64,000 bases of DNA from an uncultured Candidatus Saccharibacteria bacterium (GCA_964590315.1 CAZPVS010000001.1:42926-106925); one strand, 5' to 3'; shown: positions 35,165-63,632, numbered from the stretch's first letter. Made by a program: numbers and translations. The notes: generated from the letters alone by a model not told the origin.

Positions 35165-35168
35165 CCTC

Positions 35169-41334: not shown

Positions 41335-42197
41335 TGGCAAACTTACTCTGGAATGTATCCCAATCGCAATTGCAACGGCGGGGTGTTGCCCAGGACGCCG
41401 TCATAAATATACTCAACACTGATTTTGACGCTTTTCCAGTGTCTGATCCCATAACCATAGAAAATTATCGGACTGCAATGGGCATGACAAGCGGTGGCGG
41501 ATCATCTACAGTCGCTCGGACTGCTATCGTCTCAGAAGCTGGCCGAGGCAATGTTATACGACAGCACTTCCATGCTGGACAGTACGGTACTGCTGACGGT
41601 ATCTCTGTAAACGCGCCGCTAACAATGACTGTCGATGAGGCCACTATCACTTTTGATGTTCGTTTCACTGGTGCCAGTTTTGACTGGGGATGGGGCGGTA
41701 AATTACCGGGGCTCGCGGGTGTACGACCTGGGTACGGGAGTCCACCTTCAGGTGGCGTTCCATCTTCGTACGGATGGTCTTGTCGTGGTATGTGGATTAC
41801 CCCTGGGTCATATCCGGGCTCTTCAAGTGTACCAAATGAATTGGTTGGATATATGTATGACCCTACGCAGCTACCTGGTAATTATGGCCAAAACCGCCAA
41901 ACCAATGTTTCTTTTGTGGCCGACCAGTGGCATACCGTCAGACAGTACTACAAGATGAATACGGTCAATGTAGAGGGGGTATCCGGAAACGCTGATGGGA
42001 TTCATCTTATGTGGCTGGACGACGTTCTTGTCTATTCAAATTATACCCAAGTCTATCGTATCTACGAGGAAGCGCGTATCACACATCTTATGTGGAGTAT
42101 GTTTTACGGCGGTAATACGGTTGACTGGGCGCCAGCCATAGATACCGATATTGATATCGATAATCTACTCATTACCACACCTGTCTGGAGCAATTAG
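41334..42197 (+). CDS. possible polysaccharide-lyase-like jelly-roll protein
   Basis: DWGWGGKLPGLAG...SCRGMW...YMY resembles the conserved core of Polysacc_lyase/PL-like families as I remember it. Not verified. Confidence 0.4.
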   Translation: MANLLWNVSQSQLQRRGVAQDAVINILNTDFDAFPVSDPITIENYRTAMGMTSGGGSSTVARTAIVSEAGRGNVIRQHFHAGQYGTADGISVNAPLTMTVDEATITFDVRFTGASFDWGWGGKLPGLAGVRPGYGSPPSGGVPSSYGWSCRGMWITPGSYPGSSSVPNELVGYMYDPTQLPGNYGQNRQTNVSFVADQWHTVRQYYKMNTVNVEGVSGNADGIHLMWLDDVLVYSNYTQVYRIYEEARITHLMWSMFYGGNTVDWAPAIDTDIDIDNLLITTPVWSN

Positions 42198-42199
42198 AT

Positions 42200-45659: not shown

Positions 45660-46319
45660 ATGAGTAAGACAAAAATTCCTAACCCCATGCATGGCCGCCG
45701 CCGCGTATTCATGGGTGTTACCATTCAGCAGGCATTTCCCTATATTCTTATCATAACGGCAATTATTGGATTCGTTGCGTCCTTTGTTCTGACACTTGAG
45801 CATATGGAATTACTGAAAGATCCAAATTATGACCCGACATGCAGTATTAACCCTATTTTAAGCTGTGGACCCGTTATGGGAAGTCCAACAGCCACGCAGT
45901 TTGGCTTTCCGAATCCTCTGATGGGGCTGGCCAGTTTTGCCGCTCAGGCCGTTATAGGACTTGCCCTCCTAGCAGGAGCTCGTATCAAAACATGGTTTTG
46001 GCGGTTATGGGGTATGCAGGTGGCAGGTAGTGTGGCGTTTACGTTGTTCCTGATGCAGCAGAGTATTTTTGTTATCAAGGCGCTCTGTATCTACTGCATG
46101 GCGGTGTGGATAATCATGAGCATTAGTGCATGGTACACCGTACAGTACCTCCTTGCAGAGGGGCATATCGGGAAGCAACAGAGTAAGACTACCCAACTGG
46201 TTCGTAAATACCACGCCGATATCCTTCTTGTATGGTTCTTGTTGGTCATTTGTTTGATTTTGTGGGAATTCTGGTACTTTTTTGGGCCGAAGTTAGGGCT
46301 TGCATCACTGGCACTCTAG
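45660..46319 (+). CDS. vitamin K epoxide reductase (VKOR) family protein
   Basis: Loop cysteine pair CSINPILSC and the active-site CIYC in a TM helix. Confidence 0.7.
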   Translation: MSKTKIPNPMHGRRRVFMGVTIQQAFPYILIITAIIGFVASFVLTLEHMELLKDPNYDPTCSINPILSCGPVMGSPTATQFGFPNPLMGLASFAAQAVIGLALLAGARIKTWFWRLWGMQVAGSVAFTLFLMQQSIFVIKALCIYCMAVWIIMSISAWYTVQYLLAEGHIGKQQSKTTQLVRKYHADILLVWFLLVICLILWEFWYFFGPKLGLASLAL

Positions 46320-49600: not shown

Positions 49601-50086
49601 ATGGCAAAATACCAGATTATTATCGGGCGCGCAGAGAATATTGACTTTGTCGGTACTTCTTTAGGAGTGCCCGCTAAAATTGATACCGGAGCCTTTCGAT
49701 CCTCTGTACATGCTACCAATATACGGGAGAAGACGGATTCAAATGGCGAAAAGATCCTTACGTTTAATTTGTTTGGACATAAGTGCGCACCCGTCAAGCG
49801 GTCGCTTCAGGCTGAGAGGTATGATCTGATTCCGGTTAAAAGTTCTAATGGCGAAGTAGAAACTCGTTATGAAGTAACACTCAAGATTAAAATCGGACCA
49901 AAAATATTCAATACTAGCTTTACGCTTGCCGATCGCACAAATAATGTCTACCCCGTGCTAATTGGTAGGAAAGCATTAAAAAACCGCTTTATGATAGATC
50001 CAGCACGAGCGTCTGTTAATCGTATGGAGCTACGTAAGAACTTTGGCCTATCGGGTGCATATTCAGAGGAAGACTTCGAGGATTAA
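49601..50086 (+). CDS. RimK-associated retropepsin-like putative ATP-dependent zinc protease (DUF785-like)
   Basis: GRAENIDFVGTSLGVPAKIDTGAFRSSVHA...VYPVLIGRKAL pattern. It directly precedes rimK, as in many genomes. Confidence 0.55.
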   Translation: MAKYQIIIGRAENIDFVGTSLGVPAKIDTGAFRSSVHATNIREKTDSNGEKILTFNLFGHKCAPVKRSLQAERYDLIPVKSSNGEVETRYEVTLKIKIGPKIFNTSFTLADRTNNVYPVLIGRKALKNRFMIDPARASVNRMELRKNFGLSGAYSEEDFED

Positions 50087-50088
50087 GC

Positions 50089-51000
50089 ATGAGAATAGCA
50101 ATTTTATCTAACGGTCCCGGTAACTACTCTACAAAGCGCCTTAAGGAAGAGGCGAAATTACGTGGACATGAGGTACAGGTCATTAAGTACAAAAATTGTT
50201 ATGCGGCCATGGAGCAGAGTAATCCCGTGGTGCGCTATGACGGCGAAATTCTTACTGATTTTGACGTGGTGATACCCCGCATTGCGAGTTACATGACACG
50301 ATATGGTTCTGCAATAGTTCGCCAGTTTGAGATGCAAGGCGTGTACACCCCGACCAGTTCTATTGCGATAGTGCGATCCCGAGATAAATTGCGCAGCCTG
50401 CAGTTATTGGCCCGTGCCGGCGTGGGTATTCCTAAGACTGTTTTTGCACGTTCGGCCGCTGACGTAAATGACCTTATTGATGAATTGGGTGGAACGCCAG
50501 TGATTATTAAGTTGGCTCGTGGCACGCACGGAAACGGTGTGGTCTTGGCAGAGACGAAGAAAGCTGCCAAGTCAGTATTACAGGCGTTTTATGTGATGGA
50601 CGAAGATGGTACCAACATATTGCTGCAGGAATTTGTAAAAGAATCTGCTGGTACTGACATTCGTGCATTTGTGGTGGGTGGCAAAGTGGTTGCAAGTATG
50701 CAGCGCCAGAGCCTCGATGACGATTTCCGTTCAAATTTGCACCAAGGAGGCGAGGGTCGTGCTATTAAATTAACTGATCAGGAACGCCGCACAGCAATTA
50801 AGGCTGCGAAGGCAATGGGTTTGGCTATCTGTGGTGTTGATATGATGCGTAGTGCACGTGGTCCACTGGTTCTTGAAGTGAATGCCAGTCCTGGCTTCGG
50901 TATAGAAAAAGTGACTAATCGCGATATAGCTGGGCAGATTCTTGACTACATTGAGTTAAATGCTCGAGGCAAGCGTCGTCGTGATCGCGTCGGTGCCTAG
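50089..51000 (+). CDS. rimK: RimK-family alpha-L-glutamate ligase (ATP-grasp)
   Basis: MRIAILS start, ATP-grasp motifs and RimK length and layout. Confidence 0.85.
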   Translation: MRIAILSNGPGNYSTKRLKEEAKLRGHEVQVIKYKNCYAAMEQSNPVVRYDGEILTDFDVVIPRIASYMTRYGSAIVRQFEMQGVYTPTSSIAIVRSRDKLRSLQLLARAGVGIPKTVFARSAADVNDLIDELGGTPVIIKLARGTHGNGVVLAETKKAAKSVLQAFYVMDEDGTNILLQEFVKESAGTDIRAFVVGGKVVASMQRQSLDDDFRSNLHQGGEGRAIKLTDQERRTAIKAAKAMGLAICGVDMMRSARGPLVLEVNASPGFGIEKVTNRDIAGQILDYIELNARGKRRRDRVGA

Positions 51001-51442
51001 AAAATATCGCCTAGTACTACTAGCTATTGCTGTGATCTTGCTGGTAATGGGATACGGTATTGCCAGTAGAGCTGGACACACGAGACGGCCCGCAGCTCCC
51101 CCTGTGCAGGATATTACGGCCAGCTTTTCTCTTGAGACGGTAACGACGTATGAACAGCGTCAGAAAGGTCTTTCTGGTCGCATGAGTCTTGCCCAGGATC
51201 GGGCAATGCTTTTTGTGTTTGATGGCGAAAGTAGACGATGTATTTGGATGAAAGATATGCAATTCCCGATAGATATTGTGTGGCTAAGTGGCAGCAAACA
51301 AATTGTCGCCATTGAACGTAATGTCAGCCCCTCGACATATCCGTCTTCGTTTTGTCATGATGACTCACACTATGTGCTAGAGTTTGCAGCCGGAGCCGTA
51401 GACGCAGCTGACTTACGTATCGGCGAGCACGTACGTCTCTAG
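50960..51442 (+). CDS. DUF192 family protein
   Basis: DMQFPIDIVWLSGSKQIVAIERNVSPST...HYVLEFAAG matches the DUF192 (COG1430) pattern. N-terminal TM helix. The 41-nt overlap with rimK suggests the real start is later. Confidence 0.55.
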   Translation: MLEASVVVIASVPRKYRLVLLAIAVILLVMGYGIASRAGHTRRPAAPPVQDITASFSLETVTTYEQRQKGLSGRMSLAQDRAMLFVFDGESRRCIWMKDMQFPIDIVWLSGSKQIVAIERNVSPSTYPSSFCHDDSHYVLEFAAGAVDAADLRIGEHVRL

Positions 51443-51460
51443 TCATGCTATCATGAGCGT

Positions 51461-51940
51461 ATGATACCGCTTATTGTAATCGGCGCACTTGCTGTCTTGC
51501 CTGTGTTTCTTGCGCTTATATTGCGGGTGAATGCCGTATTTGTCTTCCTGAGCATTGCGGCCGGTTACTTTCTACAGTACGCACTGAGTGATGACGTAGA
51601 CCTGGTAATTGCCACAGTTGTCCAAGGAAGCAATGCGATGGTTGCAGCACAGTTCATACTGCTGTGTGCCCCAGTACTCGTGACAATGCTATTATTGCGT
51701 CGCACACGGGGCAAGGGTCTTTTGTTCCAGCTGGTACCACTAGTATTTTCTGGCATGTTGCTTGCAACGCTTGCGCTGCCCCTACTGCCGCCAGATATGG
51801 CGCAGCAAGTGTACGATACGGCATATGGTAGTGGCATCAAGCAGTCACAAGATTTGGTGATTGCCGCTGCCGCAATATCAAATCTGAGTCTCTCATATGT
51901 CCTATTCAAGCATAAGGATAGACACGGCAAACATCGGTAA
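51461..51940 (+). CDS. hypothetical membrane protein (4 TM helices)
   Basis: Hydrophobic ORF upstream of the histidine kinase. Confidence 0.4.
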   Translation: MIPLIVIGALAVLPVFLALILRVNAVFVFLSIAAGYFLQYALSDDVDLVIATVVQGSNAMVAAQFILLCAPVLVTMLLLRRTRGKGLLFQLVPLVFSGMLLATLALPLLPPDMAQQVYDTAYGSGIKQSQDLVIAAAAISNLSLSYVLFKHKDRHGKHR

Positions 51941-51964: not shown

Positions 51965-54457
51965 GTGAAAAGCGGGTATAATAGAGTTATCAGCAAGGAG
52001 AACGCTGTGCCAAGGCGTCAGCAGCCGAGGAAAGAACTCGCCCGCAATGAACATTATCAGGCTTTCATACAGGCCAGTAGTGATGGTATATGGCGTTTCG
52101 AATTGCAGCAATCGGTATCGATCCAGCTACCCCCACATGACCAGATAAAGCACTATTATAAATATGCATTCTTGGCTGAAGCCAACCGTGCGATGGCGCG
52201 TATATGTGGCTTTCGGTCGATTTCGCCAATGATTGGGCTATCGTTTGGTGATGTTTTACCTGCAAAGGACGCCCAGAATAATGCACTACTACGGGCATTT
52301 ATTGCTGCGAAATATCGTCTTAGTGACTACACGACTCGACAGGTATATGGAAAGGGCAAGGAACGGTATTATCGAAATAGCATGACTGCTATTGTTGAGG
52401 AGGGTTCTGTCGTACAGATATGGGGAACGTGCCAAGACATAACTGATCAACAGCAGACAGCCGAGGCATTGCTGTATAACAAGGAGCGGCTTGATCTGGC
52501 TCTCAGGGGTTCGCACATGGGTTTGTGGGAATGGAACGTGCTGACAAATCAGCTGTTCTGGTCACCCCAACTCAAAAAAATGTACGGGCTAAAGCAAAAC
52601 AAACGAGTAACGTATGAAGATTATTTGGCGATGTTGCCCGCGGATGATCGTGCACGTACGCAGAAGCTTATTGCAAAAAGTCTAAAAACAGGGCAACCGT
52701 ATACAATGGAGCATCGTGTTATATGGCCGGACGGTACGGAGCATTGGATATTGGGTCAGGGGAAGGCGTATAAAGAGTCAGGGCAAATCGTGCGTATGGT
52801 TGGTACTGCTTTGTCGATTGATCGACAAAAGAATATTGAGACAACCCTGCAGCGACAAAACGCATATCTTGAAACACTGCACATCACTGCACTGGACGTC
52901 AGTCTTGGTCTCAAAAAACATACGCACGTGCTGAAGACTATTTTAGAACGGGCAGGGAAAATTAACGGCACGCATGATGGCTATATATACTTGAAAGATC
53001 CGCAAACCCAGAAGCTTGTCGTACGAGTGGGAACAGGGTTGTTTAAGGAATATGTCGGCCATACAATTAATTTTGGCGAAGGACTTGCCGGGAGGGTATG
53101 GGAGACAGGTCAACCGCTCACCGTTCCAGATTACGAGACATGGGATAAGCGCCAGAGTAGTTTCCCAAAGGGGCTAGTGCGTACGGTTATTGGCATGCCG
53201 CTACGGACAGACGAGGGGGTGATCGGTGTAATGACACTAGCACATCGGTATGTGAATAACGATTTTGATAGTGAGCAAATGGCAGCATTATCGCGACTAG
53301 CGGACCTTGCGAGTGTGAGTCTTCGCAATGCCCGTGTTTTGGAGGACGTAAAAGAAAGTGAACAGCGTTTCAGAACGATGGCTGATACGGCACCCGTAAT
53401 GATCTGGCTGTCTGGCGCCGATAGACAGGTAACATATTGCAATAAGTCATGGCTTGAATTTACGGGGCAGGCTGCGGCAGGGAAATGCAGTGCGGAGTGG
53501 ACAGGTAATGTGCATCCTGACGATGTAGCAAAATACCAGAAAACGTATGAAACTGCTTTTGATTCTCAGCAGTCGTTTAGTGTGGAATATCGCCTACGTC
53601 GGCATGATGGTGAGTACCGGTGGATATTGGATGTTGGTCGACCACGCTTTTCTCCAGAGGGAAAATTCGTTGGATATATTGGATCAGGCACTGATATACA
53701 TGATTTGAAGCGAGCAAGTGAGTTGATACTTGCTAATTCGCAGCTGAAGAACCAGCGTCGACAACTTATTGCGCTGAACAAAGCTAAAGATGACTTTGTT
53801 GCGCTTGCCTCACATCAACTGCGTACTCCTGCAACCGCCGTAAAGCAGTATATAAGTTTGCTGATAAATGATTATGCCGGGCCAGTTACCCCTGATCAAC
53901 TGCAGTATTTGCAAATTGCCTATAATAGCAATGAGAGGCAATTAAAGATTATTAATGATTTGCTGAAGACTGCGCAACTAGATTCGAGTCGGTTCGCGCT
54001 CGATATGGAACCACACGATATCGCGCGCATAATCACCGCAGCTGTTGACGAGCTTGAAATAACCGTTGAGCTGAAAAACCAACGGATAGTATTACGAGAT
54101 ATCTCTTCTGAAACCATAGAAATTGATGAGACAGAGATGAAGCTTGTCCTCGTGAACTTACTCGAAAATGCCAGCAAGTATAGCTATCCTCACTCAGAGA
54201 TTGTGGTAACTATGCAAAAGCAGGACGGCTTTCTAGAGATTGCAATTAGGGATAAGGGGGTTGGCATCAGCCGTGAAAACAAGCAACGTATATTTGATAA
54301 GTTTACCCGAATTGATAACGATTTGTCAGATACGGTGAGTGGCTCTGGGCTGGGGCTGTATTGGGTGAAGCGAATCGTGGCAATGCACGGGGGGAATATT
54401 AAAGTGAACTCTGCATTGAGTAAAGGCTCGACGTTTACAATAAGGTTGCCGCTATGA
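51965..54457 (+). CDS. multi-sensor histidine kinase (PAS/PAS/GAF/PAS + HisKA + HATPase_c)
   Basis: H-box ASHQLRTPATAV. N, G1 and G2 boxes (NLLENASKYS, DKGVGIS, GSGLGLYWVKRIV). Confidence 0.85.
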   Translation: MKSGYNRVISKENAVPRRQQPRKELARNEHYQAFIQASSDGIWRFELQQSVSIQLPPHDQIKHYYKYAFLAEANRAMARICGFRSISPMIGLSFGDVLPAKDAQNNALLRAFIAAKYRLSDYTTRQVYGKGKERYYRNSMTAIVEEGSVVQIWGTCQDITDQQQTAEALLYNKERLDLALRGSHMGLWEWNVLTNQLFWSPQLKKMYGLKQNKRVTYEDYLAMLPADDRARTQKLIAKSLKTGQPYTMEHRVIWPDGTEHWILGQGKAYKESGQIVRMVGTALSIDRQKNIETTLQRQNAYLETLHITALDVSLGLKKHTHVLKTILERAGKINGTHDGYIYLKDPQTQKLVVRVGTGLFKEYVGHTINFGEGLAGRVWETGQPLTVPDYETWDKRQSSFPKGLVRTVIGMPLRTDEGVIGVMTLAHRYVNNDFDSEQMAALSRLADLASVSLRNARVLEDVKESEQRFRTMADTAPVMIWLSGADRQVTYCNKSWLEFTGQAAAGKCSAEWTGNVHPDDVAKYQKTYETAFDSQQSFSVEYRLRRHDGEYRWILDVGRPRFSPEGKFVGYIGSGTDIHDLKRASELILANSQLKNQRRQLIALNKAKDDFVALASHQLRTPATAVKQYISLLINDYAGPVTPDQLQYLQIAYNSNERQLKIINDLLKTAQLDSSRFALDMEPHDIARIITAAVDELEITVELKNQRIVLRDISSETIEIDETEMKLVLVNLLENASKYSYPHSEIVVTMQKQDGFLEIAIRDKGVGISRENKQRIFDKFTRIDNDLSDTVSGSGLGLYWVKRIVAMHGGNIKVNSALSKGSTFTIRLPL

Positions 54458-54837
54458 GTAAGCAAAAGACCATACTGATTGTTGAAGATGAGCTGATACT
54501 GCAGGATGTGTACCGACTAGTGCTCTCAAAAAGCGGCTATGTTATTTATACTGCCGAAAATGGTGTGGATGGCCTGCACAAAATGAAGAAGATTAAGCCC
54601 GATCTTGTGCTGCTCGATATATTTATGCCGCTCATGGATGGGAGGGAATTTTTACGCAATATTGATATGGCGGAGTACCCACATACAAAAATAATCGTGT
54701 ATACGAATATGTACGATAAGGCAACCGAGAACGAGATGGCATCGCTGGGGGCTGATGCTTTTGTGTTGAAGTCGAGCATGACCCCTAACGATCTCGTCAC
54801 TATTGTTGAGCAATATCTCGGACCGGTATCGCAGTAG
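54454..54837 (+). CDS. response regulator receiver (CheY-like, single domain)
   Basis: ILIVEDE...DLVLLDIFMP with conserved Asp and Lys positions. Start overlaps the kinase stop. Confidence 0.85.
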   Translation: MSKQKTILIVEDELILQDVYRLVLSKSGYVIYTAENGVDGLHKMKKIKPDLVLLDIFMPLMDGREFLRNIDMAEYPHTKIIVYTNMYDKATENEMASLGADAFVLKSSMTPNDLVTIVEQYLGPVSQ

Positions 54838-54855
54838 GCACTCTCTGGCGTAGTA

Positions 54856-56193
54856 TCAGTTTGCTGGTAGCGTCAATATGATCGTTGTTCCGACGTTTTC
54901 TTCTGAGGTAAAGCTCACATTGCCGCCATGCTGTTCCATGACGGTTTTAACGAGATAGAGGCCCAGGCCGGTCCCGGGAATGTTACTTGCGACAGCATTA
55001 CTGGCCCGGTAAAAGCCTTTGTATACCTTGCTGTGTTCTTCTTTCGGTATGCCGATACCCTGATCGCTGATATGGATTGATTGCATGAGGCCGGTTTTGT
55101 TCCAGGAGAAGGTGACAGCAGTATTAGGCTTGGTGTATTTGATACCATTGGACACGACATTGTAGAGCACGCGTTTCATCATCGTCACGTCGCAGTTAAT
55201 GATAAGCTCCCGCGGCCATGATGGATCAAGCACAAATGAGACGTTCTTCTGCTGCGCGGTGAGCATTTGCACATCAGTGATTTCAGCGAGTAAGGCGTTT
55301 ATATCAGTCGGCTCACGATTTAGCTTTCGGCGATTCATGGCATGAGAAAGCTCAAGTATGTCGTCGGTACTTGCTTGTAAACGTTCTGCACTTGCGACGA
55401 TAGAATGTGCCAATTTTTTAGCTGTTTCTTCCTGTGCGTATGGTTCAAGACTGGTTGCTGCCCAGCGGATACCTGTCAGTGGATTTCGGATCTCATGTGA
55501 AGCAACCGACACGAGCTCTGATCGCAGTGCCATCAGCTGCGCATTGCGTCGTCGTATCCACTCAAAGAACAATAGAATGATAATCAGCGTTAGCCCGGTG
55601 CTGAGCGGGATGATCGCAGCCACTAAAATATCGCGCCAATAGGTCGATGATGCCACATCAATACCCAACACTGCTACTACGTCACCCGTAGATGGGTCGT
55701 ACATGGGCGCCAGGCCGGAAATAAATGTACCAAAATCATCAGTCACGGGGCCTTCGACCACCGTGCCTTTTGTCTGGAATATACCCTTAAATTCTTCAGT
55801 TGCATCATCGTAGGGTTCACCTGCTGGTGAGTAATCTTGGCTTTCGGGGTCCTCTGAATCAACATAGAAAAATAGCTGACCATCGCCGCGGTCGCCCGCG
55901 ATATACACGCTGCGGATTTTAGCATCGGATGCGGCAACATTATGTAAGTGTCGCTTGAGCTCACGGTAGGAAGAAGTGTTCTCGTCGGACGTATCGCCCG
56001 CCAGACTCATGATCTTTTGCGCATCAAGCGCCGCAGCGGCAATCTCACTGTTTTTCTTGAGGTCGGTGCGTATACGCTGGGCAGCCTGCTGGCCAGAATA
56101 TACTGCTGAAAGCACACTGATGAGTACGACTACACCAATACACGCCATGACGAAGGTGTGAATTTTGTCGCTAATCTGAGGAGTTAATCGCAT
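54856..56193 (-). CDS. membrane sensor histidine kinase
   Basis: N-terminal TM helix, periplasmic domain and second TM helix. ASHEIRNPLTGI H-box and GTGLGLYLVKTV G2 box. Confidence 0.8.
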   Translation of the reverse strand: MRLTPQISDKIHTFVMACIGVVVLISVLSAVYSGQQAAQRIRTDLKKNSEIAAAALDAQKIMSLAGDTSDENTSSYRELKRHLHNVAASDAKIRSVYIAGDRGDGQLFFYVDSEDPESQDYSPAGEPYDDATEEFKGIFQTKGTVVEGPVTDDFGTFISGLAPMYDPSTGDVVAVLGIDVASSTYWRDILVAAIIPLSTGLTLIIILLFFEWIRRRNAQLMALRSELVSVASHEIRNPLTGIRWAATSLEPYAQEETAKKLAHSIVASAERLQASTDDILELSHAMNRRKLNREPTDINALLAEITDVQMLTAQQKNVSFVLDPSWPRELIINCDVTMMKRVLYNVVSNGIKYTKPNTAVTFSWNKTGLMQSIHISDQGIGIPKEEHSKVYKGFYRASNAVASNIPGTGLGLYLVKTVMEQHGGNVSFTSEENVGTTIILTLPAN

Positions 56194-56752: not shown

Positions 56753-56829
56753 TGGAGGGTCCAGTGGGACTCGAACCCACGACACCCTGCTTAAAAGGCA
56801 GGTGCTCTAACCGGCTGAGCTATGGACCC
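56753..56829 (-). tRNA. tRNA-Lys (UUU)
   Basis: Reverse complement GGGTCCATAGCTCAGCCGGTTAGAGCACCTGCCTTTTAAGCAGGGTGTCGTGGGTTCGAGTCCCACTGGACCCTCCA. Perfect anticodon stem CCTGC/GCAGG. Confidence 0.85.
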
Positions 56830-57015: not shown

Positions 57016-57711
57016 TCACTCGACTCGAGCAGAGGACTTGTTGACTGGGCGGGTTGGTTTTGGGCGGCGTTGCAACGGCTCGATATTATAAATACGGACG
57101 TGCCGGAATAAAGCATAGGATAGCCAGCCAATAGCAATACCGCCAAGCAAATCAAGGGGCACATGTACGCCAAGATACATCCTCGACAGCGCAACTCCAG
57201 TAATCCATATGATAGGTACCCAATAATATGTACGTGGGAGATAGTACGCAACGGTGAGGGCAAGTGCTACCGCCAATGCGACGTGACCCGACGGAAAGCC
57301 GGGGCCTTGTATGAAGTCGAGTGTCGTGACACCTTCTAGTAATTCGTGCGGGCGGGCACGACCCCATAAATTTTTAGCAAATCCTGCGAGCAGATACGCC
57401 ATCGTTCCGACCATTAGTAAACGAATAACGATATGGTAGCGTTGCCTGAATAGATAAAACACGAGTAGCCCCCCGAGCACATATATGCTGCCAAGTTGTG
57501 TCACTGCGTAGAAGAACGGATAGAGAAATTCTGGTAGTCGATATATTGCCCAAAATATATCTGCTTCCCATGTTGATAATTGCGGGCCCCGTGAGGCGAG
57601 GAGTGCAATACCGAATAGACCGAGCGCTAAGATCACCTGGAGCGTAGAGGGGATCTTGTAGGGGAATGAGTGTTTTCGCCGCGTTGGTTTTTGTTTTACT
57701 ACTGGTTTCAT
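57016..57711 (-). CDS. PAP2 family phosphatase
   Basis: PSGH motif (GFPSGHVALAVALA) and an SR..H-type third motif in a multi-TM protein. Confidence 0.75.
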   Translation of the reverse strand: MKPVVKQKPTRRKHSFPYKIPSTLQVILALGLFGIALLASRGPQLSTWEADIFWAIYRLPEFLYPFFYAVTQLGSIYVLGGLLVFYLFRQRYHIVIRLLMVGTMAYLLAGFAKNLWGRARPHELLEGVTTLDFIQGPGFPSGHVALAVALALTVAYYLPRTYYWVPIIWITGVALSRMYLGVHVPLDLLGGIAIGWLSYALFRHVRIYNIEPLQRRPKPTRPVNKSSARVE

Positions 57712-57715
57712 ATAA

Positions 57716-58468
57716 TTACTCTGTTTGATGCGCTTTCAGCTGCGCAATGGCCTTTCTAACGGGTGCAACACGGTATCGTTCGAGGTAGTCGACCACCGCA
57801 TAGAACATAGTTATGGTGCCTAATAATTCAAGCGATTCCTCAATAGCTACAAGTACGCCTTGGCTCCAGAAGGTATGCTTCATTTCAGTACTCGTCAGGA
57901 TATCTATACCAACCGCGCCAATCAAAAAGATGGTGGCACTAAAGACAAACAGCATGACGGTGCGCCGAGGGAATATTAGATACATTTTGTATGCCAACCA
58001 GAGTCCAAAGAATAGGACGAATGGAATGATGAGCACCCAGGCGTTGTTAAGGAAAGTGGGTATGGCCTCTTGGTAGAACAAAAGATGTACAAACTGCAGG
58101 ATAAATTCATGAATGGCTGCCACTTCGTCTACCCAGAATATCAGCGCAACACAGGCAATAATGTTCCATAAGCGGCGCGACATCGCGTCCTTTTGTAGAA
58201 AACCAGCCAAAAGAGCAGCGACGCCAATGCCAAGAAATTGCGCTTGTGCAAACCATGTCGGTAGGCTCGACTCATCATCAAAATCTAACCGATTTGATAA
58301 CTCAAATATCTGCCCGTGCAGCTCTTTGTATACTTCAAGATTCAGATATTGGAACAGAAGATGTAAAGCCACCAACACCATCCAAAACAAGAGGAGGCCT
58401 ACTAGTAAGCGAGGGGCAAAACGTCGATGCGTCGAATTATCAGGGGAGTGGCTGTTATTATGAGACAT
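57716..58468 (-). CDS. hypothetical membrane protein
   Basis: Seven hydrophobic helices. An internal Met start is chosen to avoid overlap with the divergent nuclease gene. Confidence 0.4.
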   Translation of the reverse strand: MSHNNSHSPDNSTHRRFAPRLLVGLLLFWMVLVALHLLFQYLNLEVYKELHGQIFELSNRLDFDDESSLPTWFAQAQFLGIGVAALLAGFLQKDAMSRRLWNIIACVALIFWVDEVAAIHEFILQFVHLLFYQEAIPTFLNNAWVLIIPFVLFFGLWLAYKMYLIFPRRTVMLFVFSATIFLIGAVGIDILTSTEMKHTFWSQGVLVAIEESLELLGTITMFYAVVDYLERYRVAPVRKAIAQLKAHQTE

Positions 58469-58541
58469 AATATCCTCTATATCATACCAAAAAGCACCAT
58501 GTATTGCGCAGCAAGATGGTGTAGGGCTATGGTGGGGTATA

Positions 58542-59270
58542 ATGCGAGCCATGCATAGGCGACGGAGGGTAACAACACTAGTATTGGCGTTGCTGATATT
58601 TTTGGCCGGTTTTATATCCGACGCACTAACGAACTGGCAGCAAGCTGATACTCCTGCAGCATCTGATACTTCGCAAACAGCGCTCTCTGCAGATACGCGT
58701 TTGGCGCGGGATGCACTTTTGGACCTGGAAGTAAAAGGTCGCGCCCCAAAGACTGGCTATGACCGTGCACTATTTAGCACTGACTGGGGAGAGATAAACG
58801 ATTGCAGTATCCGTGAACTGATTCTACAACGTGATTTAGAAGCAGCCGTGCTCCATGAAGATGGGTGTCGTGTCATGAGCGGATTACTAAGGGTTGATCC
58901 CTATACGGGCACAGAAATTGCTTTCCTTCGCGGGCCTACCACAAGCGACGATATTCAGATTGATCACGTGGTAGCGGTATCGGATGCGTGGCAAAAAGGC
59001 GCACAGGCATTATCGTCAGAGCAGCGCTATCGATTCTATAACGACCCACTTAACTTGTTAGCAGTGGATGGCCCGACAAATAATAAAAAAGGCGATGCTG
59101 ATGCTGCAACCTGGTTGCCGCCGAACAAGGCTTATCGGTGCCGCTATGTCGCCCGCCAGATTGCCGTCAAGCTAAAGTACCATCTCTGGATGACAGAAGC
59201 TGAGCGATCCGCGTCAGAACGCGTGCTCGATACCTGCCCGACGCAATTATTGCCCGTGACCGAAGGATAA
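58542..59270 (+). CDS. secreted HNH/His-Me-finger nuclease (DUF1524-like)
   Basis: Signal/TM N-terminus. DIQIDHVVAVSDAW...NLLAVDGPTNNKKGDADAATWLP matches the DUF1524 GmrSD-C-type nuclease motif. Confidence 0.55.
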   Translation: MRAMHRRRRVTTLVLALLIFLAGFISDALTNWQQADTPAASDTSQTALSADTRLARDALLDLEVKGRAPKTGYDRALFSTDWGEINDCSIRELILQRDLEAAVLHEDGCRVMSGLLRVDPYTGTEIAFLRGPTTSDDIQIDHVVAVSDAWQKGAQALSSEQRYRFYNDPLNLLAVDGPTNNKKGDADAATWLPPNKAYRCRYVARQIAVKLKYHLWMTEAERSASERVLDTCPTQLLPVTEG

Positions 59271-59271
59271 T

Positions 59272-60744
59272 ATGAAACAGCCGCTCCTTCCACATACTTC
59301 ATACGTTATGAGACGAGTACATGCCTCCTGGCATATTGCTGCGCTGTCACTCGGTATCTTGATAGGGATTGCTCTATCGCAGCGGGCACATGGTGCATTT
59401 GGAACACCTGAATGGGTAGTGCTCGCTGTTGCTTTATTCAGCATAGCCTTAATAAAGCGCACCGTAGCGGTAATTATATTTGCCGTAATCGCCGGCTGTT
59501 TGCTGGGTATGTGGCGGGGTAGTGTGGAGTATCAAGCATTGAACAATTACCAGGAGTGGTATGGCAAACATGTAGTAGTGCATGGTGCCGTGAGTGAGGA
59601 TACATCGATTGGCAAGAATGGTGATCAGCGGATGCGGCTCAGTAACGTATCGATTGGAGAAGAGATGCTTCCGGGATCTGTGTGGGTATCTACACCCGTA
59701 CATCGTGATATTAAGCGCGGTGACACGGTTCATGCAGAAGGATTACTGACAGAAGGATTTGGAACGATGCCAGCCAGCATGTACCGTGCCAAGCTGTCTC
59801 ATGTCGAGCGGCCCCAGCCAGGTGACGTTGGTCGGCAGGTTCGCGATTGGTTTAGTGGCGGGGTGTATCGAGCTTTACCGCCGGAACATGCCGGTCTTGG
59901 CCTCGCATATTTAGTGGGACAAAAGCAAACCGTATCGGAAGAATTGAGTGAACAGTTCCGTACGATTGGCCTTATTCATGCGGTCGTAGCGAGTGGGTTT
60001 CACCTTACGGTACTTGTATTAGTCGTGCGACGACTATTTGGCGGAATCTCAAAATATCTCACTGCTTTGAGCGCCGCTCTGATGATAATTGGTTTCATCG
60101 CAATCACCGGACTCAGCCCTTCAATGTCACGAGCAGGTCTCATAACGGGGCTTTCACTCCTGGCATGGTACTATGGACGCGCCATACACCCCTTTGTTCT
60201 TTTACCTTTTGCCGCTGCTGTGACGGCGCTGTTTCGTCCTGCTTATGTATGGGGTGATATTGGGTGGTATCTCTCATTCGCAGCATTCGCAGGAGTCATT
60301 ATCATAGCGCCACTTGTCCATGACTATTTTTGGGGTACCGCGCGTCCAGGAATTATACGTACTGTCGTTATCACGACCATTGCAGCGCAGTTAGCCACGC
60401 TGCCACTCACTATTTTGGTGTTTGAATACTACTCCGTATGGGCATTGCTGGCTAACTTGCTGGTTGTTCCGTTGGTACCACTCGTAATGTTGTTAGTATT
60501 TTTAGCAGGGATGGGCGGACTGCTTCTCCCATCCATAGCGCCCCTTATCGGCTGGCCCGCGCGGGCGATGCTGGAATACATGATTCGCGTCGTTGAGTGG
60601 GTGTCAGCACTTCCTTATGCCAAGACAGAAGTTACCATTACAATGCCAGCACTGATAGCCGCCTATGTAATTATAGGGAGTGTAATGGTGGTTGTATGGC
60701 GCATAACTCACCATAATTTTAGAAAAGATTCTGATGTAGTTTGA
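59272..60744 (+). CDS. comEC: ComEC/Rec2 family DNA internalisation channel protein (no recognisable C-terminal hydrolase domain)
   Basis: DUF4131-like N-terminal region plus the competence domain with the GLIHAVVASGFHLTVLV motif (compare GxxHLLAISGLHV). Multi-TM. Confidence 0.7.
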   Translation: MKQPLLPHTSYVMRRVHASWHIAALSLGILIGIALSQRAHGAFGTPEWVVLAVALFSIALIKRTVAVIIFAVIAGCLLGMWRGSVEYQALNNYQEWYGKHVVVHGAVSEDTSIGKNGDQRMRLSNVSIGEEMLPGSVWVSTPVHRDIKRGDTVHAEGLLTEGFGTMPASMYRAKLSHVERPQPGDVGRQVRDWFSGGVYRALPPEHAGLGLAYLVGQKQTVSEELSEQFRTIGLIHAVVASGFHLTVLVLVVRRLFGGISKYLTALSAALMIIGFIAITGLSPSMSRAGLITGLSLLAWYYGRAIHPFVLLPFAAAVTALFRPAYVWGDIGWYLSFAAFAGVIIIAPLVHDYFWGTARPGIIRTVVITTIAAQLATLPLTILVFEYYSVWALLANLLVVPLVPLVMLLVFLAGMGGLLLPSIAPLIGWPARAMLEYMIRVVEWVSALPYAKTEVTITMPALIAAYVIIGSVMVVVWRITHHNFRKDSDVV

Positions 60745-60794
60745 GCTTTACATGGTCACCGGAGCATAGTACGATTCTGCTAATGCTTCGTATA

Positions 60795-62375
60795 ATGAAT
60801 AGTTTAGTGGGTGTTATTGTAGTAGTGAGCTTTGTACTCGTGCCACTACAGGCTGTGGCCGATACGGAGGTACTGCCAGCCACCCCCAGTGTGATACATC
60901 CACTCATCACTGAGCTGAAGGTCCGGAATGATAGTACGGGATATGATGAATTCATTGAACTGTATAACCCGTCAGATACTTCTATAGATTTGAGCCTGTA
61001 CGCATTACATTATTACAATGTTCTCAATCCGGGCCCAGCAGTCGTACCATCCAAGAAGACATTCGGGACATCTGAAATAGAACTGGCTCCCTATACGCAT
61101 ACATTGTTTATGAAGAAGCCAACAGTGCTTGGCGCTTTTACCCTATCCTCAAGCTGGCTTGATGCAAACGGCATAGTGCAGCTTGTCTATGGCGCGGATG
61201 AGCATGTTGTTGACCAAATCGGATGGACAAACAATATTGAAGCAGCAACAGTACAAAACGTCTTCCCGCCGGTACTGCTTCATTGCACTGAGGGCAGTAG
61301 CTGCACTGCTTCTACACAAAGCTTTACTCGCTTTCAGAATGAGGCAGGCGTTTATAGTATGGAACATCCACAGTGGGCGCTACATGAACCATCTCCCGGA
61401 CTTGGTGAACAGTTTGAGTTACCTGATAACAACGAGGAAGTCCTTCTCCCCGATGATACCTCTGTGCCCCCGGACTCCCTCCCGGTTGTGCTTCCCCTGG
61501 CATCTTGTGAGGGTGTGGTTATAACTGAGCTACTACCAAATCCAGACGGAGCTGATACTGGTCGTGAATTTATTGAGCTATTGAATACTTCGACGGACTT
61601 TATTCCGCTCGAAGGCTGTGCGCTACAGACCTCTGCAAATAGCAGAACATATGTCTTTGGAGATGTAACACTATCTCCTGGCGAATATCTGGCATTGAAA
61701 GATTCATTAACGGGTCTGACCCTGCCGAATGTGGCAGGAGGTACAGTATGGCTCATCGACGTCGACGAATCTGAGATACAGAACGTGGTCTATGCTCCTG
61801 GTCTAGATGAAGATGTGGCGTGGGCAGTGTTTGCGGGCCAGTGGAGACAGACCTATGCTCCCTCACCAGGCGTTGAAAATATTAATATGTCACAGCCGCT
61901 CTGTCCAGAAGGTCAAACTCGTGATTCGCTCACAGGTAAGTGTCAGGTCATAGTCAGTGCTGCGAGCATGTCGTTGGTGTCGTGTAAGCCTGGGCAGGAA
62001 CGTAATCCTCTGACTAATCGATGTCGAACAATTGCCCGTCCTGTCACAGCCGGAACCGGTCTCGTGCCATGTAAGCCTGGACAAGAGCGGAATCCGGAGA
62101 CTAACAGATGCCGTATGATCAGTATTAGCGATCTTGCACCTTGTCCAGAGGGCCAGGAACGTAACTCGGAAACGAATCGCTGCCGCAAAATAGCCGCTGC
62201 AGGGAATACCCTCGCGGCCGTGACTGACGTACCTAGTGTATCTACACCACCCAGTCCCAAGTGGTGGATTGCGTTTGTAGCAATTGCGGTCGCGCTAGGC
62301 TACGCAGCGTATGAGTGGCGGCAGGATGTGCGCCAGGCCATCGTACATCTCACCGAAAGGTTGATTCGCAGATAA
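60795..62375 (+). CDS. surface protein with two lamin-tail (LTD) domains, four Cys-rich CxxGQERNxxTNRCR repeats and a C-terminal TM anchor
   Basis: ITELKVRNDSTGYDEFIELYNPS and VITELLPNPDGADTGREFIELLNTS are LTD signatures. Four repeats of C[KP][PE]GQERN.[LE]TNRCR. C-terminal helix WWIAFVAIAVALGYAAY. Confidence 0.55.
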   Translation: MNSLVGVIVVVSFVLVPLQAVADTEVLPATPSVIHPLITELKVRNDSTGYDEFIELYNPSDTSIDLSLYALHYYNVLNPGPAVVPSKKTFGTSEIELAPYTHTLFMKKPTVLGAFTLSSSWLDANGIVQLVYGADEHVVDQIGWTNNIEAATVQNVFPPVLLHCTEGSSCTASTQSFTRFQNEAGVYSMEHPQWALHEPSPGLGEQFELPDNNEEVLLPDDTSVPPDSLPVVLPLASCEGVVITELLPNPDGADTGREFIELLNTSTDFIPLEGCALQTSANSRTYVFGDVTLSPGEYLALKDSLTGLTLPNVAGGTVWLIDVDESEIQNVVYAPGLDEDVAWAVFAGQWRQTYAPSPGVENINMSQPLCPEGQTRDSLTGKCQVIVSAASMSLVSCKPGQERNPLTNRCRTIARPVTAGTGLVPCKPGQERNPETNRCRMISISDLAPCPEGQERNSETNRCRKIAAAGNTLAAVTDVPSVSTPPSPKWWIAFVAIAVALGYAAYEWRQDVRQAIVHLTERLIRR

Positions 62376-62431
62376 CACACAACGTGCTACAATAACAGAT
62401 AAGAAAAGTTATAATTAGTGGAGTTTTGCCC

Positions 62432-63160
62432 ATGTCTGGACATTCAAAGTGGGAGACAATCAAGCGTCAAAAAGGCGCAAATGATGCCAAGCGCGGTATT
62501 TTGTTTACAAAGTTAGGCAATGCAATTGCACTCGCAGCTCGTGGCGGTACGGATCCTGATACTAACTTTGCTCTGCGCCTAGCCATTGATAAAGCCAAGG
62601 CTGCAAATATGCCGAGCAGCAACATTGACCGCGCTATTCAGCGTGTAGCCGACAAAAGCGCTGCACAACTACAGGAGCTACTGTACGAGGGCTATGGTCC
62701 TGGGGGTGTAGCGGTGTTGGTTGAAGCCGCAACGGACAACACAAATCGAACTTTCCCGGAGGTCCGCCTGGCATTTACAAAACACGGTGGTAGCATTGCC
62801 GAGAAAGGTGCAGTGGCGTTTCAGTTTACCCGAAAGGGCGTTATCCGTGTAAAGGGCAATGGCGACGATCTTATGTTGCAAGTTCTAGACGCGGGTGCCG
62901 AAGACATGCAGGAAGAGGGAGAGGAATCGATTGTATACACCGATCCAAAGGAACTCGCGAAAGTCCGTGATACGTTGAAGGAAGCTGGTGTCGAGATTTT
63001 GGAGGCACAGCTAACATATGTGCCAAATAACACGGTGGTAGTAGAGGACGCAGCTACGGCAGGGAAAATCATGCGCATGATGGATGCGTTGGATGATGTT
63101 GATGATGTAACTGCCACGCACGTCAATTTTGATATCCCGGAGGAGTTACTTGGCGCCTAA
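62432..63160 (+). CDS. yebC: YebC/PmpR family DNA-binding transcriptional regulator
   Basis: MSGHSKWETIKRQKGANDAKRG start. The track start at 62426 is TTG. Confidence 0.9.
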   Translation: MSGHSKWETIKRQKGANDAKRGILFTKLGNAIALAARGGTDPDTNFALRLAIDKAKAANMPSSNIDRAIQRVADKSAAQLQELLYEGYGPGGVAVLVEAATDNTNRTFPEVRLAFTKHGGSIAEKGAVAFQFTRKGVIRVKGNGDDLMLQVLDAGAEDMQEEGEESIVYTDPKELAKVRDTLKEAGVEILEAQLTYVPNNTVVVEDAATAGKIMRMMDALDDVDDVTATHVNFDIPEELLGA

Positions 63161-63632
63161 GCGCATACTGGGTATTGATCCGGGCACCGGTATCCTGGGC
63201 TTTGGTGTTATTGATATAGATGGCCGTGGGAAGGCTGCGCTGATTGACGGAGGAGTTATTAGAACACCGGTCAATCAACCCGATAGCGAGCGTCTCAGTA
63301 CGATATATGATGAGCTGCACGAAATCATTACCGAGTTGAAGCCACAGATTATGTCAGTTGAGAAGCTGTTCTTTGCACAAAATGTCACTACCGCTATGAG
63401 CGTAAGTCAGGCTCGTGGGGTAGTGCTGCTGTGCGGCAAGCAGCACAGCATGGAGTTGTATGAATACACGCCGCTACAAATAAAAATGGCGATAACAGGG
63501 TATGGGAAAGCCGACAAGAAACAAGTACAGGAGATGGTGCGAATTATTCTTGATCTAGACGAAGTGCCCAAGCCGGATGATTGTGCAGATGCTATTGCGG
63601 CAGCCCTGACCTGTGCGCAGAGTATGCGATAA
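63150..63632 (+). CDS. ruvC: crossover junction endodeoxyribonuclease RuvC
   Basis: RILGIDPGTGILGFGVID catalytic N-terminus. TTG start at 63150 after a ggagg RBS is preferred to the track start at 63129. Confidence 0.85.
   Translation: MAPKRILGIDPGTGILGFGVIDIDGRGKAALIDGGVIRTPVNQPDSERLSTIYDELHEIITELKPQIMSVEKLFFAQNVTTAMSVSQARGVVLLCGKQHSMELYEYTPLQIKMAITGYGKADKKQVQEMVRIILDLDEVPKPDDCADAIAAALTCAQSMR

Follow-up and report, generated by a model that had tools for sequence, protein, structure and literature searches.

A short-ComEC competence locus of Saccharimonadia with a candidate DNA-processing nuclease and a conserved LTD surface protein

We analysed a 64,000-nucleotide stretch of DNA (hereafter the window) and found that it carries a competence (DNA-import) locus of an ultrasmall Saccharimonadia/CPR bacterium. 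Here we describe the gene content, domain architecture and conserved linkage of this locus, in which three consecutive plus-strand genes encode a DUF1524-family nuclease, a short ComEC and an LTD surface protein. We tentatively propose that, at this comEC locus of a deep-branching clade, the DNase made with ComEC processes incoming DNA; we regard this as possible, short of probable. The short ComEC would provide an extracytoplasmic OB fold and a channel for ssDNA, without a nuclease domain of its own. The exported His-Me DNase would be made together with ComEC and would work on the outside of the membrane, where it would cleave duplex DNA as it arrives, strip off the non-imported strand, or do both. 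The LTD protein would present two very acidic Ig-like LTDs upon a basic stalk of Cys-bounded hairpins. The protein families at the locus are already known and their arrangement is a lineage variant. The interest is chiefly that the locus nominates a knock-out target, as the DNase can be tested as a candidate for the enzyme that acts on incoming DNA where ComEC has no nuclease of its own. The features are as follows.

56753..56829, minus strand: tRNA-Lys(UUU), conserved landmark upstream of the comEC locus
58542..59270, plus strand: ORF1, putatively exported His-Me finger nuclease (DUF1524/GmrSD_C family), 242 aa (Pfam, model, conservation)
58563..58637, plus strand: basic stretch and hydrophobic segment, nuclease aa 8-32 (hydrophobicity scan)
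58896..59207, plus strand: catalytic DUF1524 His-Me domain with QIDHVVA motif, nuclease aa 119-222 (Pfam, homologue alignment)
59272..60744, plus strand: ORF2, ComEC/Rec2 of the short 'DC' type, 490 aa (Pfam, NCBIfam models, homologues, alignment to solved ComEC)
59419..59748, plus strand: DUF4131/OB-fold region, ComEC aa 50-159 (Pfam, 30.8 bits, cut-off 31.6)
59911..60702, plus strand: Competence (channel) membrane domain, ComEC aa 214-477 (Pfam, E=1.8e-45)
60741..62375, plus strand: ORF3, LTD gene, 544 aa, predicted type I membrane protein with signal peptide, two LTDs, four Cys hairpins and C-terminal anchor (Pfam, model)
60903..61418, plus strand: LTD 1, Ig-like beta-sandwich, aa 55-226, net charge -14 (model strands, lamin Ig-fold matches)
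61506..61865, plus strand: LTD 2, aa 256-375, net charge -14, pI 4.1 (Pfam, model pLDDT 90-97)
61902..62189, plus strand: four Cys-bounded beta-hairpin repeats, aa 388-483, basic stalk of pI 9.1 (regex, charge, model, Pfam TNFR_nem)
62259..62324, plus strand: C-terminal hydrophobic helix, then conserved YEWR motif and basic tail (model helix aa 507-543)
62426..63160, plus strand: yebC (TACO1 family), conserved neighbour
63129..63632, plus strand: ruvC, conserved neighbour downstream of the LTD gene

Gene order and the short ComEC

At E<=0.001, the database contains over 1,700 homologues of each of the three ORFs, and length is conserved among the best 120 listed for each. Because length-conserved homologues are so many, none of ORF1-3 is a chance ORF, and the three consecutive plus-strand genes of the initial annotation are confirmed. 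The ATG of comEC starts two bases past the stop codon of the nuclease gene and is preceded by a GAAGGA ribosome-binding site, at most 38 nt separate the comEC stop from the first ATG of the LTD gene, and a search for terminators between the genes gave no convincing one. The three genes are predicted from the sequence to be co-transcribed. Among the database homologues, contigs of only 4-6 kb hold all three families. The gene order here is nuclease-comEC-LTD-yebC-ruvC; in most species yebC lies between comEC and the LTD gene. tRNA-Lys(UUU) is found upstream of comEC in most related loci, and stands beside comEC in Southlakia epibionticum ML1.

ORF2 matched the Competence domain (PF03772) with 155.8 bits against a cut-off of 23 bits and TIGR00360 with 61.4 bits against 36.5. 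DUF4131 fell just below its gathering cut-off (30.8 vs 31.6 bits); PF13567 is precomputed for most close homologues, and ECOD gives the ML1 orthologue an OB fold. The protein has about 10-11 hydrophobic segments, and in an alignment with the solved N. carbonis ComEC its invariant PSMSRAG motif falls on PSVSRAG. A beta-lactamase fold was sought at the C-terminus: Pfam gave no Lactamase_B match, and the protein ends 13 residues past the Competence domain. The full-length model ComEC_Rec2 (TIGR00361) reached 45.4 bits, far below its cut-off of 190 bits. ORF2 aligned solely to residues 214-492 of a solved 801-aa ComEC (30bt_A), and residues beyond about 492 of the solved 801- and 827-aa ComECs have no counterpart in it. 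The initial annotation was thus right that this ComEC lacks the usual nuclease domain. The short architecture is common to all of the best 120 homologues listed, one of which is named Saccharimonadales, and ComECs of other organisms were at most 61% identical to that of the window among the species loci and database matches examined, ML1 apart. Lack of the nuclease domain is the usual state in CPR bacteria and is seen in about half of all ComECs, and DUF4131 plus Competence ranks among the commonest profiles in bacteria (PMC6299819). According to the literature, no nuclease is known for ComECs without the C-terminal domain.

The nuclease and the LTD protein

The nuclease matched Pfam GmrSD_C (PF07510, formerly DUF1524) at aa 119-222 with E=1.7e-17. 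The database version is 222 aa long, with a later start. Its aa 8-32 are predicted to be an export signal or a membrane anchor, and RRRR followed by a hydrophobic segment is kept in most homologues. Thus the exported HNH/His-Me DUF1524 nuclease of the initial annotation holds, export being a prediction. In an alignment of 30 homologues, H142, N167, D168 and N180 are invariant and D141 is nearly so. Cys 88, 109, 200 and 232 are also invariant among them, which suggests two disulfides. The structure model (pLDDT 84.8) found its best solved-structure matches in Vvn and Vibrio endonuclease I by Foldseek with a probability of 0.84-0.98, a modest fold match at E=0.03-0.15 and TM 0.33-0.42; ECOD places the ML1 homologue in e1oupA1. 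Pfam gave no match to PF04231 (Endonuclease_1) or to Endonuclease_NS, the motif being QIDH and not DRGH, and a PDB sequence search found no match. With a pI of 5.3, the mature protein is mildly acidic. Activation by oxidation after export has been described for the Vvn/endonuclease I class, and the four invariant Cys together with a VKOR gene present within the window fit such activation.

The start of the LTD gene is uncertain: it may be TTG 60741, ATG 60795 or ATG 60783, the last being the one used in the database (530 aa). Pfam LTD (PF00932) matched ORF3 twice (E=4.2e-22, 79 bits vs a cut-off of 34.3 bits; best stretch aa 256-351), and the model matched the Ig folds of lamin A/C, B1 and B2 with a probability of 1.00 and TMt of 0.45-0.59. 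Both searches uphold the two LTDs that had been assigned from the sequence. Four Cys hairpins are present as well, of the form C-x2-G-Q-x-R-[ND]-x2-T-[NG]-x-C, although the stricter pattern of the initial annotation fits three of them (aa 415, 444 and 468) and the fourth, from aa 388, is degenerate; orthologues carry 2-6 copies. TNFR_nem (PF25314) scored 30.8 bits against a cut-off of 27 bits as the sum of four short stretches, each spanning just profile positions 18-33 of 34. The match is best read as a generic disulfide hairpin and hardly as homology to nematode receptors. The C-terminal helix lies under the Kyte-Doolittle threshold of 1.6 and is probably a membrane anchor in view of the model; W526 and R527 are invariant. 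The protein is probably exported by the Sec pathway. The ectodomain has a net charge of -13 to -46 and a pI of about 4.1 in all 40 orthologues, and no whole protein in the window is as acidic.

Linkage and the roles of the nuclease and the LTD protein

We compared synteny across 80 Saccharibacteria species, with 70 species loci for the nuclease and 58 informative loci for the LTD gene. Of the 70, 16 have the nuclease gene directly upstream of comEC, often at a distance of 0-40 nt, and in many clade members the two abut or overlap by up to 4 nt. These 16 loci all belong to coherent deep-branching groups; the adjacency is absent from about 77% of species. We infer a role of the nuclease in uptake, and an EndA-like helper role is plausible because its model resembles the secreted, non-specific Vvn/endonuclease I.

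A rather unlikely alternative is that the enzyme is a general extracellular DNase, mechanistically apart from ComEC, which serves nutrient release from DNA of the environment or the host, or biofilm remodelling, or limits transformation, and whose adjacency to comEC arose from loose co-regulation or from chance insertion near a tRNA gene. The locus does lie beside tRNA-Lys, the family is very large and mostly away from comEC, and the closest structural relatives (Vvn, EndoI and Dns) lower transformation, which speaks against a helper role. CPR bacteria cannot make nucleotides and need an outside supply, yet not via ComEC. The S. epibionticum homologue, SEML1_0519, shows no linkage to comEC and does not belong to a core family. 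However, SEML1_0519 is also non-essential for growth and therefore not an essential nucleotide source there. The two-base spacing in the window, the abutting or overlapping genes of other clade members and the persistence of the arrangement over a deep clade whose ComECs are just about 50% identical also argue against a general DNase and are consistent with processing of incoming DNA. The initial annotation had proposed that the nuclease function was outsourced from ComEC. A putatively exported DNase does adjoin a ComEC without a nuclease domain, but the short ComEC is typical of the lineage; since adjacency is limited to 16 of 70 species loci and the S. epibionticum homologue is unlinked, outsourcing is at best a clade-specific helper arrangement.

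The LTD gene is linked to comEC more widely; in 52 of 58 informative loci (90%) it follows comEC on the same strand. Its product, predicted to lie in the envelope, is a conserved companion of this neighbourhood, and any role given to it below is our inference. The S. epibionticum counterpart, SEML1_0775, comes from a core family enriched in Patescibacteria and was scored as class II essential in co-culture. ComEC, ComF and DprA of this organism are dispensable; deletion of comEC left a viable mutant with no detectable transformants (PMC10633639), and competence genes were not among the significant contributors to fitness (PMC10633639). The viability of this mutant and the lack of a significant fitness contribution weaken the DNA scavenging suggested in the initial annotation. 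Because the counterpart is needed for epibiotic growth and ComEC is not, the role of the LTD protein would extend beyond ComEC-dependent uptake. The Tn-seq phenotype of SEML1_0775 may partly be a polar effect on downstream ruvC, a transglycosylase gene and ruvA.

The LTD protein might be an envelope or host-interface protein (adhesin, spacer or cell-wall-associated factor) unrelated to DNA, whose position reflects only the strong conservation of gene order in small Saccharibacteria genomes. This would suit the essentiality of the core family, an acidic Ig-like ectodomain on a stalk, as in many surface proteins, and the proposal that LTDs direct proteins to membranes. yebC and ruvC are as strongly conserved neighbours as the LTD gene, as is tRNA-Lys, and the comEC-LTD linkage could thus be inherited gene order. 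Nevertheless, comEC and the LTD gene stay adjacent in 10 of 11 loci in which yebC does not separate them, having moved away or being missing from the flank, and these pairs often overlap by 4 nt. Elsewhere in the class, the comEC neighbourhood is joined by genes for type IV pilins in 9 species and for a YfbR-like 5'-deoxynucleotidase in 3, which indicates that it recurrently holds genes of DNA uptake and DNA processing. Together with the possible polarity of the phenotype, these observations leave a role unrelated to DNA somewhat doubtful.

It is improbable that the LTD protein is a surface DNA receptor that replaces ComEA and feeds a ComEC whose nuclease has moved to a secreted enzyme, as the initial annotation had suggested. 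The linkage in 52 of 58 loci would fit, as would the basic Cys stalk and the fusion of LTDs to extracellular nucleases (ExeM, haloarchaeal MBL 'ComA', thermonuclease Hvo_1477), and the comEA search that it called for found no entry for ComEA, K02237 or HHH_3 in the S. epibionticum annotation tables. However, the acidity of the ectodomain in all 40 orthologues argues against electrostatic DNA binding, and Pfam and NCBIfam found no HhH or other known DNA-binding domain in ORF3. The LTD of ExeM is dispensable, since ExeM without it still clears DNA in vivo, and the literature calls the role of LTDs 'not yet elucidated'. Furthermore, with SEML1_0775 essential and comEC, comF and dprA dispensable, the LTD protein cannot act in competence alone. 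It is probably not a ComEA-type DNA receptor. Finally, a GmrSD-like type IV restriction or defence nuclease, to which the name of the Pfam family points, is effectively refuted for ORF1, which has no DUF262/GmrS domain (Pfam, NCBIfam) and no match in a PADLOC search, and carries a predicted N-terminal export segment and invariant Cys pairs; putative extracellular DUF1524 nucleases are recognised as a subgroup of their own.

Comparison with known systems

The short ComEC matches the 'DC' profile (Pimentel & Zhang 2018), whereas canonical ComEC of the DCL type has a C-terminal metallo-beta-lactamase-like domain. The nearest characterised case is ComEC of S. epibionticum ML1 (SEML1_0777), which has the same architecture of DUF4131 (just under the cut-off in ORF2) and Competence in about 480-490 aa, without a beta-lactamase domain, and shares the neighbourhood of tRNA-Lys, yebC, LTD gene and ruvC. 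Natural transformation of ML1 depends on it. The order there is comEC-yebC-LTD-ruvC, however, and the DUF1524 nuclease is encoded at another place in the genome.

LTDs are tied to extracellular DNA processing in ExeM/Xds (LTD+OB+EEP), Haloferax Hvo_1477 (LTD+thermonuclease) and haloarchaeal 'ComA' (LTD+MBL). In contrast, the LTDs of the window are fused to no catalytic domain, and nuclease and channel are encoded by neighbouring genes of their own. The stalk of Cys hairpins and the C-terminal anchor occur specifically in the Saccharibacteria LTD family. Like the LTD protein as predicted here, ComEA spans the membrane once, has a domain outside the cytoplasm and is encoded with comEC. It is a membrane-anchored helix-hairpin-helix DNA receptor, whereas the LTD protein is acidic, has no HhH and has a growth-essential counterpart in S. 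epibionticum.

As for the nuclease, Vvn, endonuclease I and Dns are the best, though modest, structural match; they are exported, as it is predicted to be, and like it have features that suggest disulfide stabilisation, but they belong to PF04231, which the nuclease did not match. To our knowledge, they are not encoded next to comEC. EndA of S. pneumoniae and NucA of B. subtilis are exported or membrane-tethered beta-beta-alpha-metal (His-Me) nucleases, as the nuclease of the window is predicted to be. Both act in trans with ComEC as DNA-entry nucleases, with transforming DNA proposed to be processed on the outer side of the membrane. EndA is of the Endonuclease_NS family with a DRGH motif, in contrast to DUF1524, and pneumococcal ComEC keeps the C-terminal domain that the ComEC of the window lacks. 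Loss of EndA cuts transformation about 100-fold (PMC8579336). Elsewhere, incoming DNA is processed by EndA, by NucA or by the C-terminal domain of ComEC; the uptake role is proven for EndA and NucA, and the nuclease described here is a candidate for such a role.

A short ComEC between a probably exported nuclease and an LTD protein

The initial annotation had claimed three consecutive genes on the plus strand, and all three ORFs are present at exactly the coordinates that it gave.

Genes of the locus (window positions; LTD, lamin-tail domain)
58542-59270, plus strand: ORF1, nuclease, 242 aa; Pfam GmrSD_C (former DUF1524), E=1.7e-17
59272-60744, plus strand: ORF2, ComEC, 490 aa; Pfam Competence at aa 214-477, E=1.8e-45
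60741-62375, plus strand: ORF3, LTD protein, 544 aa; Pfam LTD twice, E=4.2e-22

The comEC ATG, preceded by a GAAGGA ribosome-binding site, begins two bases on from the nuclease stop codon, and at most 38 nt lie between the comEC stop codon and the first ATG of ORF3. No convincing terminator was found between the three genes. Database versions of all three proteins begin later (222, 478 and 530 aa; start regions at 58542-58604, 59272-59310 and 60741-60797). With the 222-aa call, the nuclease would lose half of its conserved hydrophobic export segment, and the alignment of homologues favours the longer form. For the LTD gene, the start is ambiguous among TTG 60741, ATG 60783 and ATG 60795.

As the initial annotation had proposed, ComEC lacks the C-terminal metallo-beta-lactamase (MBL) nuclease domain; Lactamase_B was not matched, and the protein ends 13 residues past the Competence domain. 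DUF4131 scored 30.8 bits, just below the Pfam cut-off, and the full-length ComEC_Rec2 model gave 45 bits against a cut-off of 190 bits. Aligned with solved structures, it covers only residues 214-492 of one ComEC (801 aa) and 220-490 of another (827 aa), and it shares a PS(M/V)SRAG motif with the solved ComEC chain. The numbering of the functionally tested residues (R285 and others) in the 2026 ComEC structure paper does not match the deposited chain. Among the homologues of ComEC, the best 120 listed all have a length of about 480-490 aa and the same two domains; one is named Candidatus Saccharimonadales. Lactamase_B is present in only 52% of Competence-domain proteins, and DUF4131+Competence is among the most abundant profiles (Pimentel & Zhang 2018, PMC6299819). 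Méheust et al. report ComEA for just 31% of CPR genomes and suggest that DNA is bound there by another mechanism. Southlakia epibionticum is naturally transformable, and its comEC deletion mutant is viable but gives no detectable transformants; ComEC, ComF and DprA make no fitness contribution there (Wang et al. 2023, PMC10633639). Its ComEC has the same DUF4131+Competence architecture (tables of Wang et al. 2023). Together, these studies indicate that a ComEC without the nuclease domain is the norm of this lineage and is functional in transformation, as shown in S. epibionticum. A split ComEC with a separately encoded MBL was rejected, as none was found in the window and the one candidate in S. 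epibionticum is a protein of 211 aa with a Lactamase_B_3 domain beginning at residue 4.

The remaining window is ordinary chromosome, with genes for FtsH, LepA, MurJ, DnaK/DnaJ/GrpE, HrcA, RimK, VKOR, two-component systems and surface proteins. The initial annotation had called for a search for comEA and pilus genes. Pfam identified no comEA, pilin or separate MBL gene in 43 of the 58 window ORFs of at least 150 aa (the 15 left out include some that overlap scanned genes on the opposite strand). Neither did inspection by eye of the small ORFs in the gaps, and a prepilin regular expression had no match. The search thus came out negative for the window, which with 64 kb is only part of the genome, so that this absence says little genome-wide.

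Other features of the window
7851-9538: large serine recombinase gene (Resolvase+Recombinase+Zn_ribbon), its 3' end overlapping a tRNA-Met gene
10149-10223 and 23686-23762: two further tRNA-Met genes near the recombinase
about 10000-14000: low-GC stretch (0.40-0.43 vs about 0.48), with several Pfam-less ORFs near the recombinase
31612-39499 and 41334-43213: probable surface-protein genes (BppL_N-like, Laminin_G_3, CarboxypepD_reg, three Big_7 + dockerin), followed by genes for a polysaccharide lyase (PL14) and for a PKD-domain protein; most of the proteins are strongly acidic
45660-46319: VKOR (vitamin K epoxide reductase family) gene, between dnaK and dnaJ
49601-51940: cluster of genes for RimK and a RimB-like Zn protease with small ORFs downstream, within a few kb of comEC
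51965-56193: gene for an 830-aa histidine kinase; next, a response regulator gene, overlapping the kinase gene by 4 nt at its start; another histidine kinase gene, convergent
57016-58552, minus strand: PAP2 phosphatase and 278-aa polytopic membrane protein genes, between tRNA-Lys and the nuclease gene and divergent from the latter

The recombinase, tRNA-Met and low-GC region may be an integrated element.

Gene order around comEC in related species

Conservation of gene order was examined in 80 comEC loci from a scan of species-representative genomes (ComEC identity 43-61%), of which the named ones belong to Saccharibacteria/Saccharimonadia or Patescibacteria MAGs. The ORFs that we called in these loci were searched using profiles of the window proteins. 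Exact look-ups of the window ComEC and of its database twin matched no recorded contig, and synteny was taken from the relatives' loci. Of the 58 loci with sufficient flanking sequence, 52 (90%) carry the LTD gene downstream of comEC in the same orientation. The order comEC-yebC-LTD-ruvC is the most frequent one (40 loci), and the usual upstream landmark is tRNA-Lys(UUU). This gene order is also that of S. epibionticum ML1, where tRNA-Lys adjoins comEC. The nuclease gene lies directly upstream of comEC in only 16 of 70 loci (23%). On a neighbour-joining tree of ComEC they fall into a deep-branching clade with 14 members, the window among them, and a small second group; the large clade with Nanosynbacter has none. 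In nuclease-type loci without yebC in between, the LTD gene still follows comEC in 10 of 11, often with a 4-nt overlap, which argues for more than inherited gene order. The LTD protein is a real, conserved partner of the comEC neighbourhood.

Six comEC loci of related species (handles L017, L048 and L064, which form one clade, and L024, L029 and L079) have no LTD gene within 8 kb downstream, and the gene may have moved or been lost there. A tRNA-His gene follows yebC in L017 and L064; the tRNA scan did not cover L048. Nine other species carry type IV pilin genes (Pfam N_methyl; prepilin N-terminus GFTIVELL), one to three per species, between comEC and yebC and on the strand of comEC; the window does not have this arrangement. 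In three species this position holds a gene for an HD_3/YfbR-like 5'-deoxynucleotidase, a nucleotide-salvage enzyme beside the gene of a DNA-import channel. These two kinds of insert indicate that the comEC neighbourhood repeatedly gathers DNA-uptake and DNA-processing genes.

Genes inserted between comEC and yebC (locus-internal coordinates)
Pilin genes, same strand as comEC: L031, 9471-10526; L039, 9479-9970; L044, 9479-9970; L047, 10661-12602
Pilin genes, continued: L053, 9462-10028; L061, 9486-10085; L066, 9491-10060; L069, 9495-10046
YfbR-like 5'-deoxynucleotidase genes, minus strand: L028, 4329-4925; L040, 1482-2162; L052, 9440-10033

Other window neighbours recur in part. The RimK cluster is also found in L003 and L004 (11593-13467), whose ComEC is only about 49% identical, and its small ORFs are DUF192 there. 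The nearest relatives, too, have the kinase-regulator pair upstream of their comEC locus (L001 and L002, 1-388), and the counterpart of the first kinase in relatives has PAS domains. The PAP2 and 278-aa protein genes are kept only in the closest relatives, L001, L002 and L006.

Properties of the two flanking proteins

Thirty nuclease homologues share a basic-plus-hydrophobic N-terminus, a variable linker and four invariant cysteines; H142, N167, D168 and N180 are invariant and D141 nearly so. The AlphaFold model (pLDDT 84.8) is closest to Vvn and Vibrio endonuclease I (probability 0.84-0.98, TM about 0.35-0.42), and the S. epibionticum ML1 homologue has the same ECOD assignment (e1oupA1). A PDB sequence search with the nuclease profile gave nothing meaningful. 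A GmrSD-like defence function was rejected, as PADLOC matched none of the five proteins tested and the nuclease has no GmrS domain. The homologue features, the model and the lack of a defence match suggest that ORF1 is very probably a non-specific DNase that is exported. DUF1524 nucleases that are putatively extracellular and anchored in the membrane have already been catalogued (Jablonska et al. 2017). VKOR would supply extracytoplasmic disulfides, consistent with the four invariant cysteines of the nuclease and the 12 cysteines of the LTD protein.

The two lamin-tail domains proposed for ORF3 were recovered by Foldseek as well as Pfam, with the tail domains of lamin A/C, B1 and B2 as matches (probability 1.00); a PDB sequence search with the LTD profile gave nothing meaningful. 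From N to C terminus, the model (pLDDT 77.6) consists of a signal helix, Ig-like sandwiches at aa 55-226 and 259-371, four beta-hairpins bounded by Cys pairs, and a C-terminal helix at aa 507-543. Pfam reports four TNFR_nem-like stretches. The strict motif of the initial annotation, C[KP][PE]GQERN.[LE]TNRCR, fits three of the four Cys-rich repeats, but the fourth copy, which precedes them, is degenerate. In orthologues the Cys stalk has 2-6 repeats and is basic (median pI about 9.1).

Whether this protein is a surface DNA receptor substituting for ComEA was then considered. Its linkage to comEC is real, but three observations disfavour the receptor role. First, LTD1 and LTD2 each have a net charge of -14, and the ectodomains of all 40 orthologues range from -13 to -46 (median pI 4.1). 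No whole protein of the window is as acidic per residue, yet other surface proteins are acidic too, so that this argument is moderate rather than decisive. Second, LTDs recur with extracellular DNA enzymes (Shewanella, haloarchaea), but ExeM does not need its LTD to degrade DNA in vivo, and what that LTD does is reported as not elucidated. Third, SEML1_0775, the S. epibionticum counterpart with the same two-LTD and TNFR-like architecture and syntenic position, belongs to a core, Patescibacteria-enriched family and is a class II essential gene; its insertion count, 53 in the input, dropped to 30, 6 and 1, whereas ComEC freely tolerates insertions. This phenotype could also stem from polarity on the genes that follow (ruvC, the transglycosylase gene and ruvA). 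The evidence leans away from a ComEA-like receptor and toward a broader envelope function.

A possible role of the nuclease in DNA uptake

On the best reading, this is the Saccharibacterial comEC locus in a clade-specific form that also includes a closely abutting gene for an exported DNase. The initial annotation had suggested that the nuclease function of ComEC was outsourced to this enzyme. At best, this describes a helper arrangement of some clades, since the short ComEC is the lineage norm and the adjacency is infrequent. Judged from gene context, the most economical mechanistic reading is that the DNase would act as an EndA/NucA-like helper of ComEC uptake. However, its nearest structural relatives counteract transformation: Vvn, EndoI and Dns, which become active through oxidation once exported, reduce it (Jablonska et al. 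2017). The enzyme may help uptake, hinder it or have no bearing on it. A more far-reaching reading, which we regard as unlikely, casts the DUF1524 nuclease, perhaps held in place by the LTD protein, as the missing partner that processes DNA outside the cell for ComEC channels without an MBL domain; single-stranded DNA would then be prepared for import independently of both ComEA and MBL. If true, this would answer, at least in Saccharibacteria, how roughly half of ComEC-bearing bacteria remove the non-transforming strand. The essential LTD protein might also link the DNA-processing machinery to a route of nucleotide acquisition from the host. If neither flanking gene affects DNA uptake, this is simply the lineage's ordinary comEC neighbourhood.

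No paper found in our literature search linked DUF1524 with ComEC, or LTD proteins with CPR bacteria or competence, save annotation rows in the supplement of Wang et al. Within the literature searched, the conserved comEC-LTD linkage and the nuclease-comEC arrangement are new; the component families and the short ComEC were already known. The locus highlights a comEC-linked, Patescibacteria-enriched LTD membrane protein needed for epibiotic growth, and it nominates as a deletable candidate the DUF1524 nuclease, whose homologue SEML1_0519 is non-essential. Almost half of ComEC proteins have no nuclease domain, the fate of the non-transforming strand there is 'an open and interesting question', and only pneumococcal EndA has been identified (Silale et al. 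2021, PMC8579336). The helper reading of the DNase bears directly on this gap, the missing nuclease of ComECs without the C-terminal domain, and Saccharibacteria, now genetically tractable, are naturally transformable with exactly such a short ComEC.
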